Shown: positions 6,136-11,591, counted from the first letter of the stretch. The stretch is 12,525 nt of DNA from Candidatus Altiarchaeota archaeon (GCA_043813075.1 JBDRLL010000004.1:1-12525); one strand, 5' to 3'. Program-made: numbers and translations. The notes: a model not told the origin generated them from the sequence alone.

Positions 6136-7117
6136 AGGAGGTCATGCTGCAGGCCTTGAAGTATTCCGCCAGGTATTCCCCAACATACTTGTTGCCGTCT
6201 GGAGTCCAGTGGCCGTCCAGCGGCCGGTATGTCGTCCTCACGCCCTCTGATTCCTTCTCCAGCAGATGCTCTGCGACACCGGGTATGCAGGCCATATCCG
6301 CGGCCCTGCATATCTCCTCCTCCCTCCAAGTCATATTGTCTGTGCTGAAGAGGTATATTGGCGTGTCTCCCACCCTCTCGCGGACCATCATCATTATCCT
6401 CAGCGTGGTGTTGAATGCGTCGGCCTCTAGCTCGGGGCTTGCGGGGAGTATATCCTCTGCACCGCACCTCCTTGCCTGAACGTAGTTCTCGTACAGCCCG
6501 ACTATTGATTTGGCGGCCCTTGACTTCATCCTGACCCATGAAAGGGGTGTCGGATAACGGTATACTATGTCATCCCCCTCCAGGTAGGGTCTCGCATGCC
6601 TGTTGTTGCATGGATAGTATGCGGAGTCTAGCACGTGGTTGCTGTTCCTGTAGTCGTTCCCGCAGAACTGCCATAGTATCACGTCCGGTTTTATTGCATC
6701 ATAGTAGTCGTCTATGATAAGGTACTCCTGGAGTGGCCCGTATTCGGATGCGCCGAACACGAAGAATTCCATGTCATCGAATTCCTCCTCAAGATAGGCG
6801 TAGTATTCCTCCCCGTTCGGGGTCCACATCATGTGGGTGTAGGAGTCTCCGATGACGAGCATCTTCTTCCTGTCCGAATCCGGGTCGCCCCACCGTTTGA
6901 ATCCGCGGGTGGAGTATTCCACCGTGAAGTTGCGCACTACGCCTTCAGGATCCATGACGCTCCGTTTTTCACTGGTGTTTTCCTCGATGCCCCACCCGTA
7001 CCTGGTGACCGTAATCTCAGGCAGCATTATTCTGGCGGCGGCTTCGATCACTGCCAGACATATCAGTGAAGTCAAGGCCAGCAGGAGCATGTTCTTCCAG
7101 ACGCGCCTTGAAATCAT
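6134..7117 (-). CDS. Membrane-anchored SGNH/GDSL hydrolase family protein (AlgJ/AlgX-like esterase or acyltransferase)
   Basis: N-terminal TM helix ([22 protein letters not shown]), block I IGDSYT, block III FCGND, block V DGHW. The ATG overlaps the cysN stop (ATGA). Confidence 0.85.
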
Positions 7118-8337
7118 TCTACGATTATCCCGCCTGCAGCCACGTCGTAGCCTTGGACTATCACGAACCTGCCTAGCTCCGGGACTTCATTGAAGTTTTC
7201 CACCACTATTGGCCTGACGGTCTTTATGACCATCTCGCCGACCTCGTTCTCGTTGAGCTGTGGCGCATCCTCCTCAAGGACTTCTAGCGTGGATGAGTCC
7301 AGCCTCCGGTCTATGGATTCTATGCCGCAGTCTACTTCCTCGGTGGCGAGCTTGATTGTCACCCTGTCCGTCTTCTTCAGCGGCTGCTTGCCCATCCAGA
7401 AGACTTTCGCGCTGACGGTGTCGGTGACTTCAGGCAGCCTTCCGTCGCATATGATGCTGCCCCTGTCGAGGAACAGCTTGTCCTTTATGGTGACTCCGAT
7501 GCTCTCGCCAGCCTCAGCCTCCTTCTTGCCGTCGTCCATGAACACCTTGATTCCCGTTACCTTGGTCTTCCTGGGGTCTGGGAGCACGGTGACCTCCTGG
7601 CCTTCCCTTATCCTGCCGGACTCGACCCTGCCTGCGAACACCCGGTCCCCGCCCACCATATAGATGTCTTGGATGGGGTATCTCAACGGCTTCTCCGTGT
7701 GGCGTTCCGTGTTCACGAACGTGTCCAGTGACTCTAGTATGCTCATGCCGTCGAACCACGGCATCTTCTCGCTCTTCCTGGCCACATTGTCCCCCTCCTT
7801 CGCGGAGATGGGGATGACGTAGGTTGGCTTTATGTTGATGGCCTCGAGGAACTCGAGCAGGCTCGCCTTAACCTCCTCGAACCTCTCCTTCCCGTACCCT
7901 ACCTTGTCCATCTTGTTGAGGACCGCTATCACCTGCTTTAACCCCAGCATGCCTAGTATGTAGGCGTGCCTCTTGGTCTGCTCCTGGACGCCCTCCTCGG
8001 CGTCGACTATGAGTATGGCGGCCTCGGCCTGGCTGGCGCCGGTTATCATGTTCTTCACGAACTCCTTGTGGCCTGGCGCGTCTATTATCACGTACTCCCG
8101 CCTGCCGGTCTTGAAGAAGGTCTGGGCGGTGTCGATGGTGATGCTCTGCTCCCTCTCCTCCTGCAGATGGTCCATCACGTAAGCGAATTCTATGTCGCGG
8201 CCCAGCGCCTTGCACGTTCTTTCAATCTCCTGCATCTTCCCCTCCGGAAGGCTTCCCGTGTCGTAGAGGAGCCTCCCGATTAGGGTGCTCTTCCCGTGGT
8301 CTACGTGTCCTACTATAACCAGTTTCAAGTGTTCCAT
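7114..8337 (-). CDS. cysN: Sulfate adenylyltransferase subunit 1 (GTPase), no fused APS kinase
   Basis: [36 protein letters not shown] and a C-terminal LGRF…AGGII. It is in the same operon as cysD. AGGTGA lies 7 nt before ATG 8337; the alternative start 8343 is only 1 nt from it. Confidence 0.92.
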
Positions 8338-8353
8338 GCCCATTTCACCTTTT

Positions 8354-9196
8354 TTAGCCGATTAGGCTGTATATCGCGTAGGCCCCCAGGATGAGGGTGA
8401 CTACCCCTATCATGAGCCTCAGCTTATCGGTCTTGATTATCTTAACGGTGTAGGCTGATATCGGGACTGATAGTATCGCCCCCACCAGCAGGTAGGGCGC
8501 CAGCACCCAGTCTATCTGCACGCCGGTCACAAAGTACATGAAGACGCCGACCACGCACGTCAGCCCTTCAGCCAGCGAGGTTATGCCTATCGCATTCTTC
8601 TCGTCGACCCCTGACAGTATCTGGCCTCCCGTGACCACCGGACCGTATCCGCCGCCGCTGAGGCCCTTGTTGAATGACGCGAGTATGCTGAGCGCGGTTA
8701 TCTTCCTCCAGGAGAACGCGAACATCATGTTCCTGCTGGCGAGTATTACGGCCCCTATGAGTGTTATGAGCACTGCGATGTAGAGCTTCAGGTAGAATTT
8801 TGGTATGCTGACTGCTATGAGGACTGCGACCACAGTCCCTATTATGCTGCATGAGGCTATCAGCATGGTTATCTTCAGCGCCTTCGGCGCCTCCTCCCTG
8901 AACCCGTTCACGTACCCTATCTCGTGGAGCCTCCTGAGTATGTCCTTCACCTTCTTCTTGCGGGGGAAGAGCTCCACGTTCCCGAGCTCGTGGTGGGTGA
9001 AGCCGGCGAGTATTCCGGTGAACAGCTCCGACAACAGCACGGACGGCACTATCTGCATCGGCTGGAAGCCGAGTATCAGCAGTACGGGAGTGAGTATGGT
9101 CCCGTACCCCATCCCCAACGTCGAGTCCAGGTATTCGCAAACAAACGCTGTGGCGACTATCCCAAGACCAATCCATAAGGCCAGTTCAAATATCAC
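8354..9196 (-). CDS. Sulfite exporter TauE/SafE (TSUP/DUF81) family membrane protein, paralog 1
   Basis: Motifs [14 protein letters not shown] and [12 protein letters not shown] with multiple TM segments. The GTG start overlaps the upstream TGA and is preceded by GAGGTGA. Confidence 0.88.
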
Positions 9197-10032
9197 ATCA
9201 TCACCTCTATGAGAGTGTATGAGCCTAAGATTATCGTCAATACCCCGACCACCACCCTAAGCCTCTTGGTGGTTATCTTCTTCACAGTGTATGCTGACAA
9301 AGGCGTTGACATCACAGTGCCTATCAGCAGGTAGGGGAGCAGCGTCCAGTCTATGAAGTCGCGCGATACCAGGTACATCAGCACGCCGGCTACGCACGTT
9401 ATGGCCTCCGACAGCGTGGTTATGCTTATCGCATTCCTCTCGTTGACTCCCGAAATCAGCTGGCCGCTGGTTATGAGGGGGCCGTATCCGCCGGCGCTGA
9501 TGCCCTTGTTGAATGACGCGATCATGCTGAGTATCGTTATCTTCCCCCAGGAGAACTTGAACTTCTTGTTGAGTGTCGCGAGGATGAAGAAGCCTATGGC
9601 GAGCACCACGAATCCGATGTACATCTTCAGGTGGACGGTGGTTATGTGCGTCGCCACGAATACGGCTGAGACCGCGCCTAGTATCCCGCAGGCGGATATT
9701 ATGAGCGTCACCTTCAGGTTGTCTGGTATGTTCTGCCTGAAGCTCTCCGCGTACCCGATGTCCTTCAGCTGCTTGACCAGGCTCGTCATGCCATTGAGCT
9801 GGGGCTTGAAGTTCGCGTTACCCATCTTGTGGTGGAAGAATCCCGCGAGGAATCCTGCCACCAGCTGGGAGACGAGTAGGGGTGGGACTATCTGCAGTGG
9901 ATTGAATCCTATCGCCAGCAGGAGGGGCGTGAGGGCTGTGCCGTATCCCATGCCTGTCGTCGAATCCAGGTATTCCGCCACGAAGGCTATGATTATTATG
10001 GACACACCCAAAAGCAGCGCGAGTTCGAACAT
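9193..10032 (-). CDS. Sulfite exporter TauE/SafE (TSUP/DUF81) family membrane protein, paralog 2
   Basis: Motifs DSTTGMGYGTALTP and FNKGISAGGYGP. Colinear with paralog 1 over its full length, with GGGAGG RBS upstream. Confidence 0.88.
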   Translation of the reverse strand: MFELALLLGVSIIIIAFVAEYLDSTTGMGYGTALTPLLLAIGFNPLQIVPPLLVSQLVAGFLAGFFHHKMGNANFKPQLNGMTSLVKQLKDIGYAESFRQNIPDNLKVTLIISACGILGAVSAVFVATHITTVHLKMYIGFVVLAIGFFILATLNKKFKFSWGKITILSMIASFNKGISAGGYGPLITSGQLISGVNERNAISITTLSEAITCVAGVLMYLVSRDFIDWTLLPYLLIGTVMSTPLSAYTVKKITTKRLRVVVGVLTIILGSYTLIEVMM

Positions 10033-10038
10033 GCGTAT

Positions 10039-10044
10039 CCTCCC
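10039..10044 (-). promoter_or_regulatory. Shine-Dalgarno site (GGGAGG) for TauE paralog 2
   Basis: The minus strand reads TAA GGGAGG ATACGC ATG between the cysD stop and the ATG at 10032. Confidence 0.7.
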
Positions 10045-10848
10045 TTACATGTAGCCTAGGGCCCTCAGCTTCTGCATCATGTAGTCGGACTCCTTGTCCT
10101 GCGACCGTCCGGAGCGTTCCGCCACCGTAGTCGTCCTGAGTTCCTCGACTATCTTTTCGACGGTGTCTGCTTCGCTGTCTACTGGATGGCAGCATGGCTG
10201 GCATCCCAGACTCCTATACCTCTTCCCGTCCCTGGCCAGGTACATGGGGTTGATGGGTATCCCCTCCCTCAGTATGTACTCCCATATGTCGAGCTCAGTC
10301 CAGTGGAGTATCGGGTGGACTCTTATGTGCTGTTCCTCGTCGCTCCTGCTCTTGTACTGGTCCCAAAGCTCCGGAGGCTGGTCCTTATAATTCCACTTGA
10401 AGTCCTGGTTCCTCGGGCTGAAGTATCTTTCCTTCGCTCTTATTCCGTGCTCGTCCCGCCTGATGCCCAATAGTATGGCCTTGTACTTCTTCTCGTTGAT
10501 GAAGTCCCTGAGCGCCTGGGTCTTCAGTGCGGTGCAGCACTTCAACGCGCCCTGGTCGACGCACATTCCTTCAGCCAGCGCCTTATCGTTCCTCGCTATC
10601 TGCAGGTCGAGGTTCCACTCCTTCGCCCAGTGGTCTCTGAACTCGTACATCCGGGGGAACTTGTAGCTCGTGTCTATGTGTATGACAGGGAACGGCAGTC
10701 TCCCGTAGAATGCCTTCCTGCACAGCCACAGCAGGGTTGTGCTGTCTTTCCCTATCGACCATAGCATGCCGATGTCCTTGAACTGCTTGTAGGCCTCCCG
10801 TATCACGTAAATGCTCCTGCTCTCCAAATCATCCAAGTGGTCCATCAT
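10045..10848 (-). CDS. cysD: Sulfate adenylyltransferase subunit 2
   Basis: MMDHLDDLESRSIYVIREAY N-terminus, PP-loop WSIGKDS, HIDTSYKF, GIRRDEH..RAKER.FS.R, QPPELW, RVHP…WTELDIW, YRSLGC. The start at 10848 overlaps the RHH stop (ATGA). Confidence 0.95.
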   Translation of the reverse strand: MMDHLDDLESRSIYVIREAYKQFKDIGMLWSIGKDSTTLLWLCRKAFYGRLPFPVIHIDTSYKFPRMYEFRDHWAKEWNLDLQIARNDKALAEGMCVDQGALKCCTALKTQALRDFINEKKYKAILLGIRRDEHGIRAKERYFSPRNQDFKWNYKDQPPELWDQYKSRSDEEQHIRVHPILHWTELDIWEYILREGIPINPMYLARDGKRYRSLGCQPCCHPVDSEADTVEKIVEELRTTTVAERSGRSQDKESDYMMQKLRALGYM

Positions 10849-11054
10849 AGATACCCTAGTTTCCGTAGCTTCTCTATAACCTTGTCCTTCGCCTCCTCCG
10901 TGTTGTTCCACTCGTCTTTCGTGGAGACGATTTCCCTGAGGACGTAGGTGACGTAGTCTGACATTGACTTGAAGCCTGTCCCAGTTATCTGCCCCTTAAT
11001 CTTCCGGGCCAGGTCTTCGGGGATGCTCACTGTAGTGTATTTCGTGTCGTGCAT
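10845..11054 (-). CDS. Ribbon-helix-helix (CopG/MetJ/Arc-type) transcriptional regulator with acidic linker and LRKLGYL tail
   Basis: Beta strand YTTVSIP, helix EDLARKIKGQI, turn TGFKS, helix MSDYVTYVLREIV, then tail EEAKDKVIEKLRKLGYL. Translationally coupled to cysD. Confidence 0.85.
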   Translation of the reverse strand: MHDTKYTTVSIPEDLARKIKGQITGTGFKSMSDYVTYVLREIVSTKDEWNNTEEAKDKVIEKLRKLGYL

Positions 11055-11084
11055 GACAAAAACCCCTGCAGTACAATCACAGGC

Positions 11085-11126
11085 AATTAAAACAGTTTAA
11101 TTATAGGTAATTACTTATTTATAAAT
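11085..11126 (-). promoter_or_regulatory. AT-rich promoter/operator region of the RHH-cysD-tauE-tauE-cysN-SGNH operon, with palindromes
   Basis: TTTTAATT on the minus strand about 30 nt before ATG 11054. Dyads: AATTAAA-N4-TTTAATT (11085-11102), ATAGGTAATTACTTAT (11103-11118), ATTTATAAAT (11117-11126). Confidence 0.55.
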
Positions 11127-11136
11127 TAGTTTTTCT

Positions 11137-11283
11137 TTAATCCAGGTATCCGAGGCTCTTCAACCGGTCTTTAACCTTCTCCTCATCGGAGTTGGGCTTG
11201 ACCATCTCGGCCTCGTGTTTCGCAATCTCTTCCTGAGTCCGCCTTATCCCAAGCTTTATGAGCAGGGTGTTGAATAATCCCAT
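11137..11283 (-). CDS. Small 48-aa protein ending in the LxxLGY motif (not in the ORF track)
   Basis: MGLFNTLLIKLGIRRTQEEIAKHEAEMVKPNSDEEKVKDRLKSLGYLD*. The ORF is GC-richer than its AT-rich flanks and has a BRE-TATA (CGAAACGTATTTTAA) 22 nt upstream. Its tail matches the neighbouring RHH and CysD C-termini. Confidence 0.8.
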   Translation of the reverse strand: MGLFNTLLIKLGIRRTQEEIAKHEAEMVKPNSDEEKVKDRLKSLGYLD

Positions 11284-11324: not shown

Positions 11325-11591
11325 TCAGTAGGCGGTCTTCAAACGCTTCTCAGCCAGGTCATGCAGGAAAAACAAGTCCAAGGCCCTCCTCAGACTCTCG
11401 GGAGTCCTCAGCAAAGGATGCTTAGGCCTATGCAGCCTATGAATCCCCTCCATATCCTGCACCTCCCCAGACTTGAAGCGAACAGCCTTCAACTCCATGT
11501 TCTCATCAAGGATATACTCGGAGATAGCCTTACGGTTAAACTCCAAGCACCCTCCCCTCTCAACCAAAACCTTAAAATCAGACATCTTCAT
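11325..11591 (-). CDS. Hypothetical protein (88 aa)
   Basis: The ORF fills the gap between two AT-rich intergenic regions, has TTTTTATA upstream on the minus strand, and shows codon usage like its neighbours (GAG/AAG/AGG). No family recognised. Confidence 0.6.
   Translation of the reverse strand: MKMSDFKVLVERGGCLEFNRKAISEYILDENMELKAVRFKSGEVQDMEGIHRLHRPKHPLLRTPESLRRALDLFFLHDLAEKRLKTAY

Follow-up and report, generated by a model that had tools for sequence, protein, structure and literature searches.

The window analysed here is a stretch of 12,525 nucleotides from the genome of a Candidatus Altiarchaeota archaeon. It carries a sulfate-activation operon on the minus strand, and several of the encoded proteins share a short hook-like element that ends in Gly-Tyr. 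The features are as follows.

7114..8343, minus strand: CysN, ATP sulfurylase GTPase subunit (TIGR02034, 366.2 bits, cut-off 336.1)
8354..9196, minus strand: TauE1, TauE/SafE family membrane protein (PF01925, 96.2 bits, cut-off 32.6)
8909..8941, minus strand: internal hook-like element of TauE1, in a basic loop insert (12.7 bits, rank 2 in the profile search described below)
9193..10032, minus strand: TauE2, TauE/SafE family membrane protein (PF01925, 91.4 bits, cut-off 32.6)
9748..9780, minus strand: internal hook-like element of TauE2, LVKQLKDIGYA, in a loop insert (9.1 bits, rank 4)
10045..10848, minus strand: CysD, ATP sulfurylase small subunit, 267 aa (NF003587, 349.3 bits, cut-off 195; 1ZUN_A, E 1.6e-62)
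10048..10080, minus strand: CysD tail MMQKLRALGYM before the stop, this lineage's form of an ending, ..M......GY[FM], found throughout the family
10845..11054, minus strand: RHH, 69-aa ribbon-helix-helix protein, probable autoregulator (NikR N-terminal match and family membership)
10848..10880, minus strand: RHH tail VIEKLRKLGYL before the stop, the family-defining C-terminal tail (15.0 bits, top non-sulfatase match)
11098..11113, no strand: TAATTA-N4-TAATTA pair, candidate RHH operator (-59/-49 from the RHH ATG)
11116..11125, minus strand: TTTATAAATA, TATA-box-like element upstream of the RHH gene, read by eye
11137..11283, minus strand: putative coding 48-aa ORF ending ..SDEEKVKDRLKSLGYLD, a tail only, without an RHH core
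11140..11175, minus strand: hook-like element of the 48-aa ORF, VKDRLKSLGYLD before the stop (12.6 bits, third-best non-sulfatase match)

The RHH gene opens the operon, and its stop codon overlaps the ATG of cysD (ATGA). The CysD ORF is listed as 10045-10911, and its likely ATG is at 10848. CysN has no kinase domain and no hook-like element; its C-terminus reads ..AAGGIIVE. In the two TauE proteins, a basic loop that connects membrane helices carries the element, and the Pfam match is split around the insert that bears it.

The element is an amphipathic helix of three to four turns. Gly caps the helix, and an invariant Tyr and then a hydrophobic residue come next. The consensus is Phi-x-x-[KR]-L-[KR]-x-[LI]-G-Y-Phi. 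The usual position is 1-2 residues before the C-terminus, behind an acidic linker of variable make-up. The genome (1,798,969 bases) was cut into 31,404 stop-to-stop segments of at least 30 aa in six frames. The pattern L[KRHQ]x[LIVM]GY has 62 matches in these segments, and 19 of them lie no more than 3 residues from a stop. For the reversed motif there are 28 matches, with none near a stop. When the second position is slightly widened, 20 matches lie at most 4 residues from a stop. These are 16 Pfam Sulfatase-family proteins, three window proteins, and one 88-residue segment on C6 that is a putative ORF.

A leave-family-out profile was built solely from the tails of the 17 sulfatase paralogues of the genome, with no window sequence included. 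Its top four non-sulfatase matches among the 31,404 segments are RHH (15.0 bits, E 0.037), the TauE1 loop (12.7 bits), the 48-aa ORF (12.6 bits), and the TauE2 loop (9.1 bits). All four cluster in one 3-kb stretch of the 12.5-kb window, within a 1.8-Mb genome. The CysD tail ranks 18th in this search (6.2 bits, E 27) and is not significant alone. By this search of the whole genome, the window elements are not chance. At the invariant positions, Leu is written with six codons and Gly with four, and third positions hold only some 0.1 bit of information. Since the synonymous sites vary freely, it is the peptide that is under selection.

A preliminary description had placed five LxxLGY elements in the window, and all five are confirmed on the minus strand. 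Its view that the motif spans unrelated protein types is borne out by the leave-family-out profile and the codon variation, which point to a cross-family peptide motif under protein-level selection. The AlkP/sulfatase-like tails that it mentioned are real and are found in 114 of 120 homologues. In this genome, nearly all proteins that bear the motif belong to families whose names relate to sulfate. The carriers are 17 of the 22 Pfam Sulfatase proteins, all nine ASST-like proteins that have an N-terminus, CysD, the RHH of the cysD operon, and the two TauE proteins of that operon. At the RHH loci, none of about 637 unrelated neighbour ORFs bears the tail, and two complete Thermoplasmatales chromosomes carry it on RHH and on no other protein. 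Because of these chromosomes, the RHH tail cannot generally act through other tails or through CysN. The motif is linked to sulfate genes, yet it is no locus-specific wiring code.

The window RHH matches no Pfam family at E <= 0.01, RHH models included. Against the NCBIfam NikR subfamily model, only its N-terminal part aligns (E 7.3e-4, 19.7 bits, below the cut-off of 119). Its relatives are named as CopG or Arc-MetJ type by their sources, and the clusters that neighbour it in the atlas are CopG, at 0.91-0.92. The AF2 monomer has no helix in residues 1-12, after which come helices 13-23 and 31-49, with a core pLDDT of 84-87. The predicted core is composed of a strand segment and two helices in about 45 residues, and the N-terminal segment YTTVSIP is invariant in the family alignment. 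The tail is predicted as a helix (53-66) that ends ahead of G67, and its pLDDT is only 61-67. This low value is as expected if the tail needs a partner chain.

The RHH tail is kept in 120 of 120 homologues, with L63, L66, G67, and Y68 invariant and 1-2 residues following the Tyr. The tail is fixed, whereas the strongly acidic linker ahead of it varies in length and sequence. In related genomes, the tail is present at 18 of 18 RHH places, in 15 of 41 genomes. The RHH profile retrieved 1571 cluster representatives at E <= 0.001. Among the best 150 representatives, 134 keep the tail, 14 have no tail match and look truncated or frameshifted, and two carry Ala or Ser for the Tyr. These searches show an archaea-wide family of about 70 aa with the tail as its hallmark, each member heading an ATP-sulfurylase or PAPS operon. 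The small DNA-binding regulators that bear this tail thus form a family that is widespread and has gone unstudied.

Immediately downstream on the same strand, 54 of 83 RHH genes have Sat and nine have CysD, mostly with gaps of -23 to +51 nt. Frequent neighbours across 80 RHH loci are Sat (64), APS kinase (56), DHH (50), sulfotransferase (43), and a Na/sulfate symporter (32). Besides RHH, no gene family is common to the window operon and these frequent neighbours. The promoter of the window RHH has its TAATTA-N4-TAATTA pair just downstream of the TATA-like box. This is the only such pair in the genome, which has 156 single TAATTA sites. An exact TAATTA-N4-5-TAATTA lies upstream of 37 of 62 type-1 RHH genes elsewhere, and a loose form lies upstream of 59 of the 62. 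Among 670 other ORFs, just 15 have the exact pair in their upstream regions, and among the 207 AT-rich ones 11 do. By eye, RHH promoters have 2 to 5 TAATTA copies with a period of 10-11 nt, and this spacing suggests adjacent dimers on one DNA face.

The five window copies arose by different routes. As the alignments show, CysD proteins universally end in G-Y-[FM], and the window tail is a form of this ending particular to its lineage. M258, G265, and Y266 are invariant in 17 CysD sequences from two clades, the tail aligns with ..MEEKKRQGY at the end of Pseudomonas syringae CysD (1ZUN_A), and Thermoplasmatota CysD proteins that adjoin the same RHH family end in ..MEDRKKEGYF. The TauE elements, by the same kind of comparison, belong to a species-level loop insert and are no feature of the TauE/SafE family; the insert is missing in four of five aligned orthologues and is replaced by an unrelated insert in the fifth. 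The 48-aa ORF is probably the linker and tail of a truncated second (type-2) RHH paralogue. It shares 50% identity over 36 aa with the C-terminal half of type-2 RHH proteins from relatives, and no RHH-core remnant was found in other frames upstream. A tail-only small ORF occurs at two of 98 RHH loci, with an analogue only in locus L006 and none in locus L002 of the same genus. The TauE loop elements and the small ORF, unconserved even in close relatives, may be neutral. The preliminary description had proposed a candidate motif-wired module of five consecutive proteins. A common design of this kind is not supported, given the unconserved TauE inserts and small ORF and the weak CysD match. The conservation in orthologues that it had named as a check holds for the RHH tail and fails for the TauE loop and the small ORF.

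Outside the window, the Tyr position of 114 sulfatase tails is Tyr in 113 and His in one, never Phe or Trp. The 113 Tyr are followed by two residues in 74 tails and by three in 17. The invariant positions of the sulfatase and RHH tails are hydrophobic plus G-Y, and sulfatase tails often have Glu or Gln in place of the basic residue at -4. AF2 predicts a sulfatase tail helix at residues 428-436 (block pLDDT 80-85) behind a linker of pLDDT 85-90. The tail-bearing sulfatases have N-terminal anchors or lipobox-like signals, as judged by eye.

Though these tail-bearing paralogues have the sulfatase fold (Z 35-40), they were rejected as canonical formylglycine sulfatases. The C/S-x-P-x-R signature is absent, and W-T-R-P-S-M stands where 6HHM has I-C-A-P-S-R, with Thr and Met in place of the Cys and Arg of C-x-P-x-R. 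Across 74 sulfatase homologues, T81 is invariant, P83 is nearly so (90% or more), and there is no conserved Arg. Only their family name ties the paralogues to sulfate.

The ASST element may be of another kind. It is found in 105 of 120 homologues with a search pattern that itself required Tyr, mostly as L-K-S-L-P-Y (P 91, G 13, Q 1). It stands about 10-25 residues past the last membrane helix and is followed by more conserved sequence. CysC proteins (APS kinases) also end in this helix-cap pattern, but their cap residue varies. The endings of 54 CysC proteins are GY in 15, GL in five, NI in five, GI in three, GF in two, and others. This variation indicates that a purely structural cap is enough to give rise to an ending of this type.

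The reading that is tentatively favoured is that the element is a protein-docking peptide used by an autoregulator. Its hydrophobic face and Tyr hydroxyl would fit a pocket. In favour of this reading are the selection on the peptide, the retention of the tail across the RHH family, the operator pairs, the hydrophobic and G-Y make-up of the invariant positions, the Tyr that is never Phe or Trp, the AF2 tail helices, and the lack of such endings on unrelated proteins. On the exported sulfatase-like enzymes, it would dock in cis or between subunits. On RHH, it would join neighbouring DNA-bound dimers or capture a putative partner, and this action would set the repression of the sulfate-activation operon. 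In this lineage, the repressor tail could be tethered or titrated by the further copies borne by CysD, by the TauE loops, and by the tail-only peptide, so that expression of the operon would be tied to how much pathway protein is present. This last step is the least supported, and it can hold only in this lineage, as most RHH-bearing genomes have no other tail carrier. Several points count against docking. The exported enzymes and the cytoplasmic RHH and CysD cannot share one receptor, and the CysC caps, the weak CysD match, the unconserved TauE and small-ORF copies, and the possibly distinct ASST element were also counted against it.

A somewhat less probable account is that the elements are independent structural caps, in which each family ends its own amphipathic helix with Gly (or Pro) and staples it with an aromatic residue, for the sake of its own fold or oligomer. 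The likeness between families would then be convergence on one way of capping a helix, and the clustering in the window would reflect no shared function. The continuum of CysC endings fits this account, as do the predicted ordering of the sulfatase tail on its own domain, the old and family-wide G-Y of CysD, the family-intrinsic ASST element with its Pro in 91 of 105 carriers, and the unconserved TauE loops and small ORF. However, the four best non-sulfatase matches of a profile made from sulfatases alone all fall in a single 3-kb stretch of the genome. No unrelated protein with such an ending was found in this genome, the 98 loci, or the two complete chromosomes. Moreover, the G and Y that vary in CysC are invariant in the RHH and sulfatase tails, which argues for a constraint beyond capping, and the tails come after variable acidic linkers rather than as the last helix of a compact fold.

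It is unlikely that the tail is an effector sensor, in which the RHH tail, and perhaps the CysD and CysC tails, would contact the sulfuryl group of sulfate, APS, or PAPS. By this doubtful account, the regulator would read the pathway product, and in the enzymes the tail would close over the active site like a lid. The RHH operons start with Sat or CysD, which are unrelated and share a substrate and product rather than a fold; the Tyr is never Phe, which suggests that the hydroxyl matters; and a flexible C-terminal tail of APS reductase, which like CysD matches Pfam PAPS_reduct, is reported to carry the residue that attacks the sulfonucleotide (bioRxiv 10.64898/2026.09.04.749436). Against this, the conserved positions are hydrophobic, and the -4 position of sulfatase tails is often acidic or Gln. 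In addition, the C-terminus of a helix is a poor anion site.

Modification of the Tyr is improbable. The residue would be O-sulfated or adenylylated, in line with the tyrosine-carrier option of the preliminary description. It would switch the regulator and the transporter loops, or it would relay sulfuryl groups in the exported ASST-like and sulfatase-like enzymes. ASST enzymes move sulfuryl groups between phenols. The Tyr is kept in 113 of 114 sulfatase tails, 120 of 120 RHH tails, and, under a pattern requiring it, 105 ASST proteins. All carrier families have sulfate-related names, and 43 of the 80 RHH loci have a sulfotransferase gene. However, no APS kinase (PF01583) or PF13469 sulfotransferase match was found in the genome, which is 89% complete, though other RHH loci do hold CysC and sulfotransferase. 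The Tyr is also flanked by basic rather than acidic residues, the motif is found on both membrane sides, and the 'sulfatases' lack the formylglycine signature.

A membrane-surface anchor, in which the helix and an interfacial Tyr would lie on lipid, holding exoenzymes flat outside, forming a juxtamembrane helix in TauE and ASST, and recruiting CysD and RHH to the inner face, is very improbable: it would explain use on both sides without a protein receptor and suits the ASST position, the basic TauE loop, and the anchors or lipobox-like signals of the sulfatases, but membrane-targeting helices keep character rather than sequence while L, L, G, and Y are invariant here, the linker is strongly acidic, AF2 places the sulfatase linker and tail confidently on the domain, and the restriction to sulfate-related families is given no reason.

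Several known systems resemble parts of the docking peptide. Repressors of the Arc, Mnt, and CopG type bind adjacent operator sites cooperatively, and in Mnt the cooperativity comes from a C-terminal helical tetramerisation tail. RHH is likewise small, is encoded by the first gene of its operon, and has short promoter repeats one helical turn apart. Like Mnt, the window protein has a predicted C-terminal helix beyond the RHH core, and the 10-11 nt operator spacing would be in line with a Mnt-like joining of adjacent dimers. Unlike these repressors, RHH has a tail of about 14 residues with an invariant L-G-Y and is missed by Pfam RHH models at E <= 0.01.

In type II toxin-antitoxin pairs, the RHH antitoxin has a disordered C-terminal tail that becomes folded on binding the protein encoded by the overlapping gene downstream. 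The window RHH gene also overlaps the next gene (ATGA), as its relatives overlap or abut theirs (-23 to +51 nt), and it too encodes an RHH core, a flexible linker, and a short C-terminal helix. However, the downstream gene encodes no toxin but an ATP sulfurylase, which has one of two unrelated folds. The invariance of the tail across Sat and CysD loci argues against a fold-specific partner.

A Schellman-type helix C-cap with a hydrophobic staple looks like L-x-x-L-G-aromatic, and AF2 stops the sulfatase and RHH tail helices just ahead of the Gly. Unlike a plain cap, the RHH and sulfatase tails are intolerant of variation, whereas CysC endings tolerate it. The HbYX tail of proteasome activators, in which a hydrophobic residue precedes the Tyr and a single residue ends the chain, was rejected as a model. 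The residue before the Tyr is Gly throughout, the sulfatase Tyr is mostly followed by 2-3 residues and the RHH Tyr by 1-2, and the motif is also internal and on exported proteins.

The flexible, catalytic C-terminal tail of APS/PAPS reductases is reported to meet the sulfonucleotide (bioRxiv 10.64898/2026.09.04.749436; PMC1175818). CysD belongs to the same family (PF01507) and has its invariant G-Y at the same end, but the reductase tail described there carries a nucleophilic Cys, unlike the Tyr end of CysD.

In the cysteine synthase complex, CysE places its flexible C-terminal tail in the active site of CysK, and the toxin CdiA-CT copies this tail (PMC6829319). The CysE tail described there is extended with a ..GDGI end, whereas the element here is a capped helix with an invariant Tyr and is also found on exported enzymes and inside loops. 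The two systems are alike in having a short C-terminal peptide on sulfur-assimilation proteins, a chain end that matters, and look-alike tails on unrelated proteins. The RHH tail also follows a variable linker and is modelled as a helix of low pLDDT (61-67) in the monomer. The CysE tail acts by docking and not by catalysis, and by analogy the same may be proposed for the element. CysE/CysK with CdiA-CT is a precedent for tail docking and mimicry in sulfur assimilation.

The LxxLGY element, a short helix-Gly-Tyr motif here termed the hook (or LGY tail), is a real motif, constrained at the peptide level. Its five copies in the window are of mixed origins, and one of them belongs to a family of ribbon-helix-helix (RHH) regulators that is defined by this tail and has a characteristic operon position. 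The carriers are minus-strand genes in the order 48-aa ORF, RHH, CysD, TauE2 and TauE1, followed by CysN, with the RHH stop codon and the cysD ATG overlapping as ATGA. The coordinates and sequences first reported for these elements are correct.

Hook-bearing genes of the window and associated features (CysD, TauE2, TauE1 and CysN assigned by Pfam/NCBIfam)
11137-11283, minus strand: 48-aa ORF, C-terminus ..VKDRLKSLGYLD at the stop codon
11098-11113: candidate operator, a TAATTA pair at -59/-49 from the RHH ATG, directly after the TTTATAAATA box
10845-11054, minus strand: RHH protein, 69 aa, C-terminus ..VIEKLRKLGYL at the stop codon
10045-10848, minus strand: CysD, C-terminus ..MMQKLRALGYM at the stop codon
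9193-10032, minus strand: TauE2, with LVKQLKDIGYA inside the chain
8354-9196, minus strand: TauE1, with an internal LGY-type element
7114-8343, minus strand: CysN

Upstream of the 48-aa ORF lies an 88-aa ORF (11325-11591, minus strand) that has no Pfam match and ends in ..LAEKRLKTAY. This end loosely resembles the hook, except that Ala replaces Gly and the chain stops at the Tyr. Downstream, the operon has a pair of AlkP genes of the Phosphodiest type, one gene with weak SGNH similarity and a Wzx-like flippase. The window's genome (G000) encodes CysD and CysN; APS kinase (PF01583) and a PF13469 sulfotransferase were not found in this assembly, which is 89% complete. For the APS that the operon makes, no onward route to PAPS is visible. 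The window also holds a subtilase (PF00082; 2-2245, plus strand) that is not related to the hook; its Thr-rich N-terminal stretch runs off the contig end and its C-terminal domains are repeated.

Across G000 (1.8 Mb, 41 contigs, one of which is the window in full), 31,404 stop-to-stop segments were scanned. The pattern L[KRHQ]x[LIVM]GY occurs 62 times, 19 of them within three residues of a stop, compared to 28 occurrences and none near a stop for the reversed motif used as a control. When the second position is widened, there are 20 frame-ending matches, comprising 16 Pfam Sulfatase-family proteins, three proteins of the window and a putative 88-residue segment on contig C6; a 17th Sulfatase-family protein has five residues after the Tyr. 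A leave-out profile was built from the 17 sulfatase tails of G000 only. Its top four non-sulfatase matches in the genome are the RHH tail (15.0 bits, E 0.037), the TauE1 loop (12.7 bits), the 48-aa ORF tail (12.6 bits) and the TauE2 loop (9.1 bits). The preliminary description had proposed a motif shared by five consecutive proteins of a sulfate-activation locus; this profile recovers four of them, but the CysD tail ranks 18th at 6.2 bits, amid noise. The best match in a protein without a visible sulfate link, an internal ERLRELGYI in a 1101-residue protein, scores 7.5 bits, which is noise level. In this protein (contig C10, 50771-54073, minus strand) the internal stretch reads SVERLRELGYIKDY.

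Six Leu codons and four Gly codons are in use at the invariant hook positions, and this free codon choice indicates selection on the peptide. A DNA or RNA element underlying the hook is ruled out because synonymous positions vary freely. Nor did the copies arise when a single tail-coding segment of the window was recently duplicated, since the RHH, ORF and CysD tail codons differ at nearly all synonymous sites. The hook is not a generic protein ending in G000, in the 98 loci or in two complete chromosomes, and the RHH and sulfatase tails do not qualify as HbYX-type tails.

Within G000, the hook is found in 17 of 22 PF00884 genes and in 9 of 9 ASST-like proteins with an available N-terminus, where it lies directly past the membrane anchor. 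It is also present in 2 of 4 TauE genes, both in the window, and there the insert splits the Pfam match. The preliminary description named similar tails on many AlkP/sulfatase-like proteins, and 114 of 120 homologues of the 'sulfatases' indeed carry one, spanning many bacterial phyla and archaea and including some TPR fusions. At the aromatic position these tails have Tyr (113) or, once, His, never Phe or Trp; in 74 of them the chain ends exactly two residues later. A related L-K-S-L-[P/G]-Y-[LV]-x-W occurs in 105 of 120 ASST homologues (Pro 91, Gly 13, Gln 1). The tail-bearing 'sulfatases' fold like sulfatases (Z 35-40) and possess Thr and Met in place of the Cys and Arg of C-x-P-x-R, which makes sulfatase activity doubtful. 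Judged by these residues, the 17 proteins (e.g., at locus L024) are probably Thr-nucleophile AlkP-superfamily hydrolases or transferases rather than sulfatases. The sulfate link of the largest carrier group thus rests on a family name. In the AlphaFold2 model of a sulfatase-like protein (mean pLDDT 91.2), the tail helix (428-436) is at 80-85 and the linker before it at 85-90. In its best three PDB alignments by sequence, the match gives out around residue 355 of 441. Fold comparison with most solved sulfatases covers residues 31 to ~420, so that the tail is scarcely compared.

The RHH tail is kept at 18 of 18 places, found in 15 of 41 related genomes, and in all 120 homologues listed. An RHH profile matched 1571 cluster representatives at E ≤ 0.001. 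Among the best 150 of these, 134 have the tail, 14 without a tail match look truncated or frameshifted, and two have Ala or Ser for Tyr. In an unselected alignment of 24 sequences, L63, L66, G67 and Y68 show the same invariance as the YTTVSIP strand; the 14-residue tail is as conserved as the DNA-binding strand. By name, the carriers belong to Thermoplasmatota, Thermoproteota (Desulfurococcales, Thermofilaceae), Nitrososphaerales, Bathyarchaeota and Altiarchaeota, and the closest relatives of the window are named Altiarchaeota/Altiarchaeales. MAGs labelled Aciduliprofundum, Staphylothermus and Nitrososphaerales are among those with the family. Within 6 kb of the best 80 of 337 genomic places, whose mutual relatedness makes the counts overstate independence, neighbors include Sat (64), APS kinase (56), DHH phosphoesterase (50), sulfotransferase (43), Na/sulfate symporter (32), CysD (9) and CysN (8). 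Of 83 RHH genes, 63 are directly followed on the same strand by an ATP sulfurylase gene (Sat 54, CysD 9), mostly at a gap of -23 to +51 nt. The most frequent orders are RHH-Sat-DHH-CysC-ST-symporter (15) and RHH-CysD-CysN-DHH-CysC-ST (8).

A longer architecture of ~210 aa, which begins with a different type of RHH, continues with a middle domain (IPF..EF..WFE) and closes with an LGY-tailed RHH, recurs in the representatives P0373, P0389, P0394, P0395, P0429, P0489 and P0509 and at locus L012. In two loci of relatives (L010, L013), the order is RHH, 253-aa AlkP-like protein and then a short PAPS_reduct-like protein ending in ..MRRLRDMGYF.

By eye, TAATTA hexamers with a 10-11 nt period lie upstream of RHH genes; Thermoproteota have two copies, Thermoplasmatota four or five. 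Exact TAATTA-N4-5-TAATTA is present upstream of 37 of 62 RHH genes and a loose form upstream of 59. Among 670 regions upstream of other ORFs, only 15 contain the exact pair, as do 11 of the 207 that are AT-rich. On this pattern, the RHH is very probably a dedicated autoregulator binding as adjacent dimers. The exact pair at 11098-11113 is the only one in G000; for this strict form, the scan speaks against an RHH regulon that takes in sulfatase or ASST genes.

The remaining window copies have other histories. The window's CysD ending aligns with the end of its P. syringae counterpart (..MEEKKRQGY); two clades keep M258, G265 and Y266 without exception, RHH-adjacent CysD of Thermoplasmatota ends in ..AMEDRKKEGYF, and the MQKLRxLGYM ending occurs only in CysD of the window's clade. 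Passages of PMC5770160 and PMC4373884 make no mention of a role for the CysD tail in CysD-CysN. The TauE loop insert is absent in four of five aligned orthologues of relatives, and the fifth (L120, genome G020) has an unrelated Tyr/Lys-rich insert, ..KTHKYYKYYKFPYIPK.., at the same position. The same-genus genome G001 has RHH-CysD-(71-aa membrane ORF)-CysN and lacks the TauE pair and the small ORF. This membrane-like ORF (locus L002, 485-697, minus strand) takes the place of the TauE pair.

In alignment, the 48-aa ORF matches a second RHH type from the last part of helix 2 through the linker to the tail; this type is seen by eye in relatives and at least 13 other loci. No RHH-core remnant was found upstream of it, and a comparable tail-only ORF occurs only at L006, giving 2 of 98 loci. 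A search for matching RNA datasets listed none; two DNA datasets had word shares of 0.27 and 0.10. Conservation of the motif in orthologues thus holds for the RHH (120/120 listed) but not for the TauE loop (0/5) or the small ORF (2/98 loci). The second RHH type is divergent, carries a ..EEKVKERLRALGYLD tail and shares loci with the first, so that two RHH families have one tail; it is present in L039, L049, L052, L055, L057, L072, L075, L079, L089, L092, L098, L104 and L111.

The conserved hook positions are hydrophobic plus Gly-Tyr, and the hydroxyl does not appear dispensable, which would suit a docking helix; a docking peptide is the reading we tentatively favor. In most carriers the RHH is the sole tailed protein, so the general partner must be the RHH itself, a tail-less protein or a small molecule. 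If it is the RHH, the tail could bridge adjacent dimers. The AlphaFold2 monomer of the RHH has a core at pLDDT 84-87 and a tail helix (53-66) that ends before G67 and has pLDDT 61-67; no PDB sequence matched at E ≤ 1, and a complex prediction for four copies of residues 40-69 (alignment A1), run without controls, scored 0.10 against a pass mark of 0.42 and weighs neither way. The additional copies in the window's lineage could serve to tether the repressor or to titrate it; they may also be neutral.

That the hooks are independent structural caps is somewhat unlikely. APS kinase C-termini have the same helix-cap pattern with a variable cap (GY 15, GL 5, NI 5, GI 3, GF 2, others; n=54), which shows what a structural cap without constraint looks like. 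Effector sensing by the tail, with a small molecule among the possible partners, is unlikely. Modification of the near-invariant Tyr is improbable. There is similarly little probability that the hook is a sulfation-specific interaction or relay code, in which Tyr would accept or pass on a sulfuryl group, or be read by one hook-binding module on each side of the membrane. Such a code would join the sulfatase-like and ASST-like exoenzymes, the TauE pair, ATP sulfurylase and the RHH repressor in one regulated unit, much as in the motif-wired sulfation module first proposed, with the 48-aa tail-only peptide as decoy or carrier. Membrane anchoring by the hook is very improbable.

No description of the hook motif or this RHH family was found in the open-access papers searched, where a search for a regulator of archaeal sulfate activation turned up only an unrelated cell-cycle RHH. 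To our knowledge, no regulator of archaeal sulfate activation has been described. With 1571 representatives (E ≤ 0.001), a set gene position and a candidate TAATTA operator, this family is a candidate for one and a testable handle on archaeal control of PAPS synthesis and sulfation. The same tail is also the C-terminus of exported sulfatase-fold enzymes that form a very large clade in bacteria and archaea. If one function covers the RHH and these exoenzymes, the hook would be a rare prokaryotic short linear motif that spans domains of life as well as cell compartments. Otherwise the window still gives a clear example in which a tail already present was recruited, within one lineage, to transporter loops and a micro-ORF. 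Near precedents for the RHH are the Arc/Mnt-type repressors, which act cooperatively, and RHH antitoxins. For the tail, they are the C-terminal tail of APS/PAPS reductases, which is reported to be catalytic, and the CysE tail that sits in CysK, with its CdiA-CT mimic (PMC6829319).
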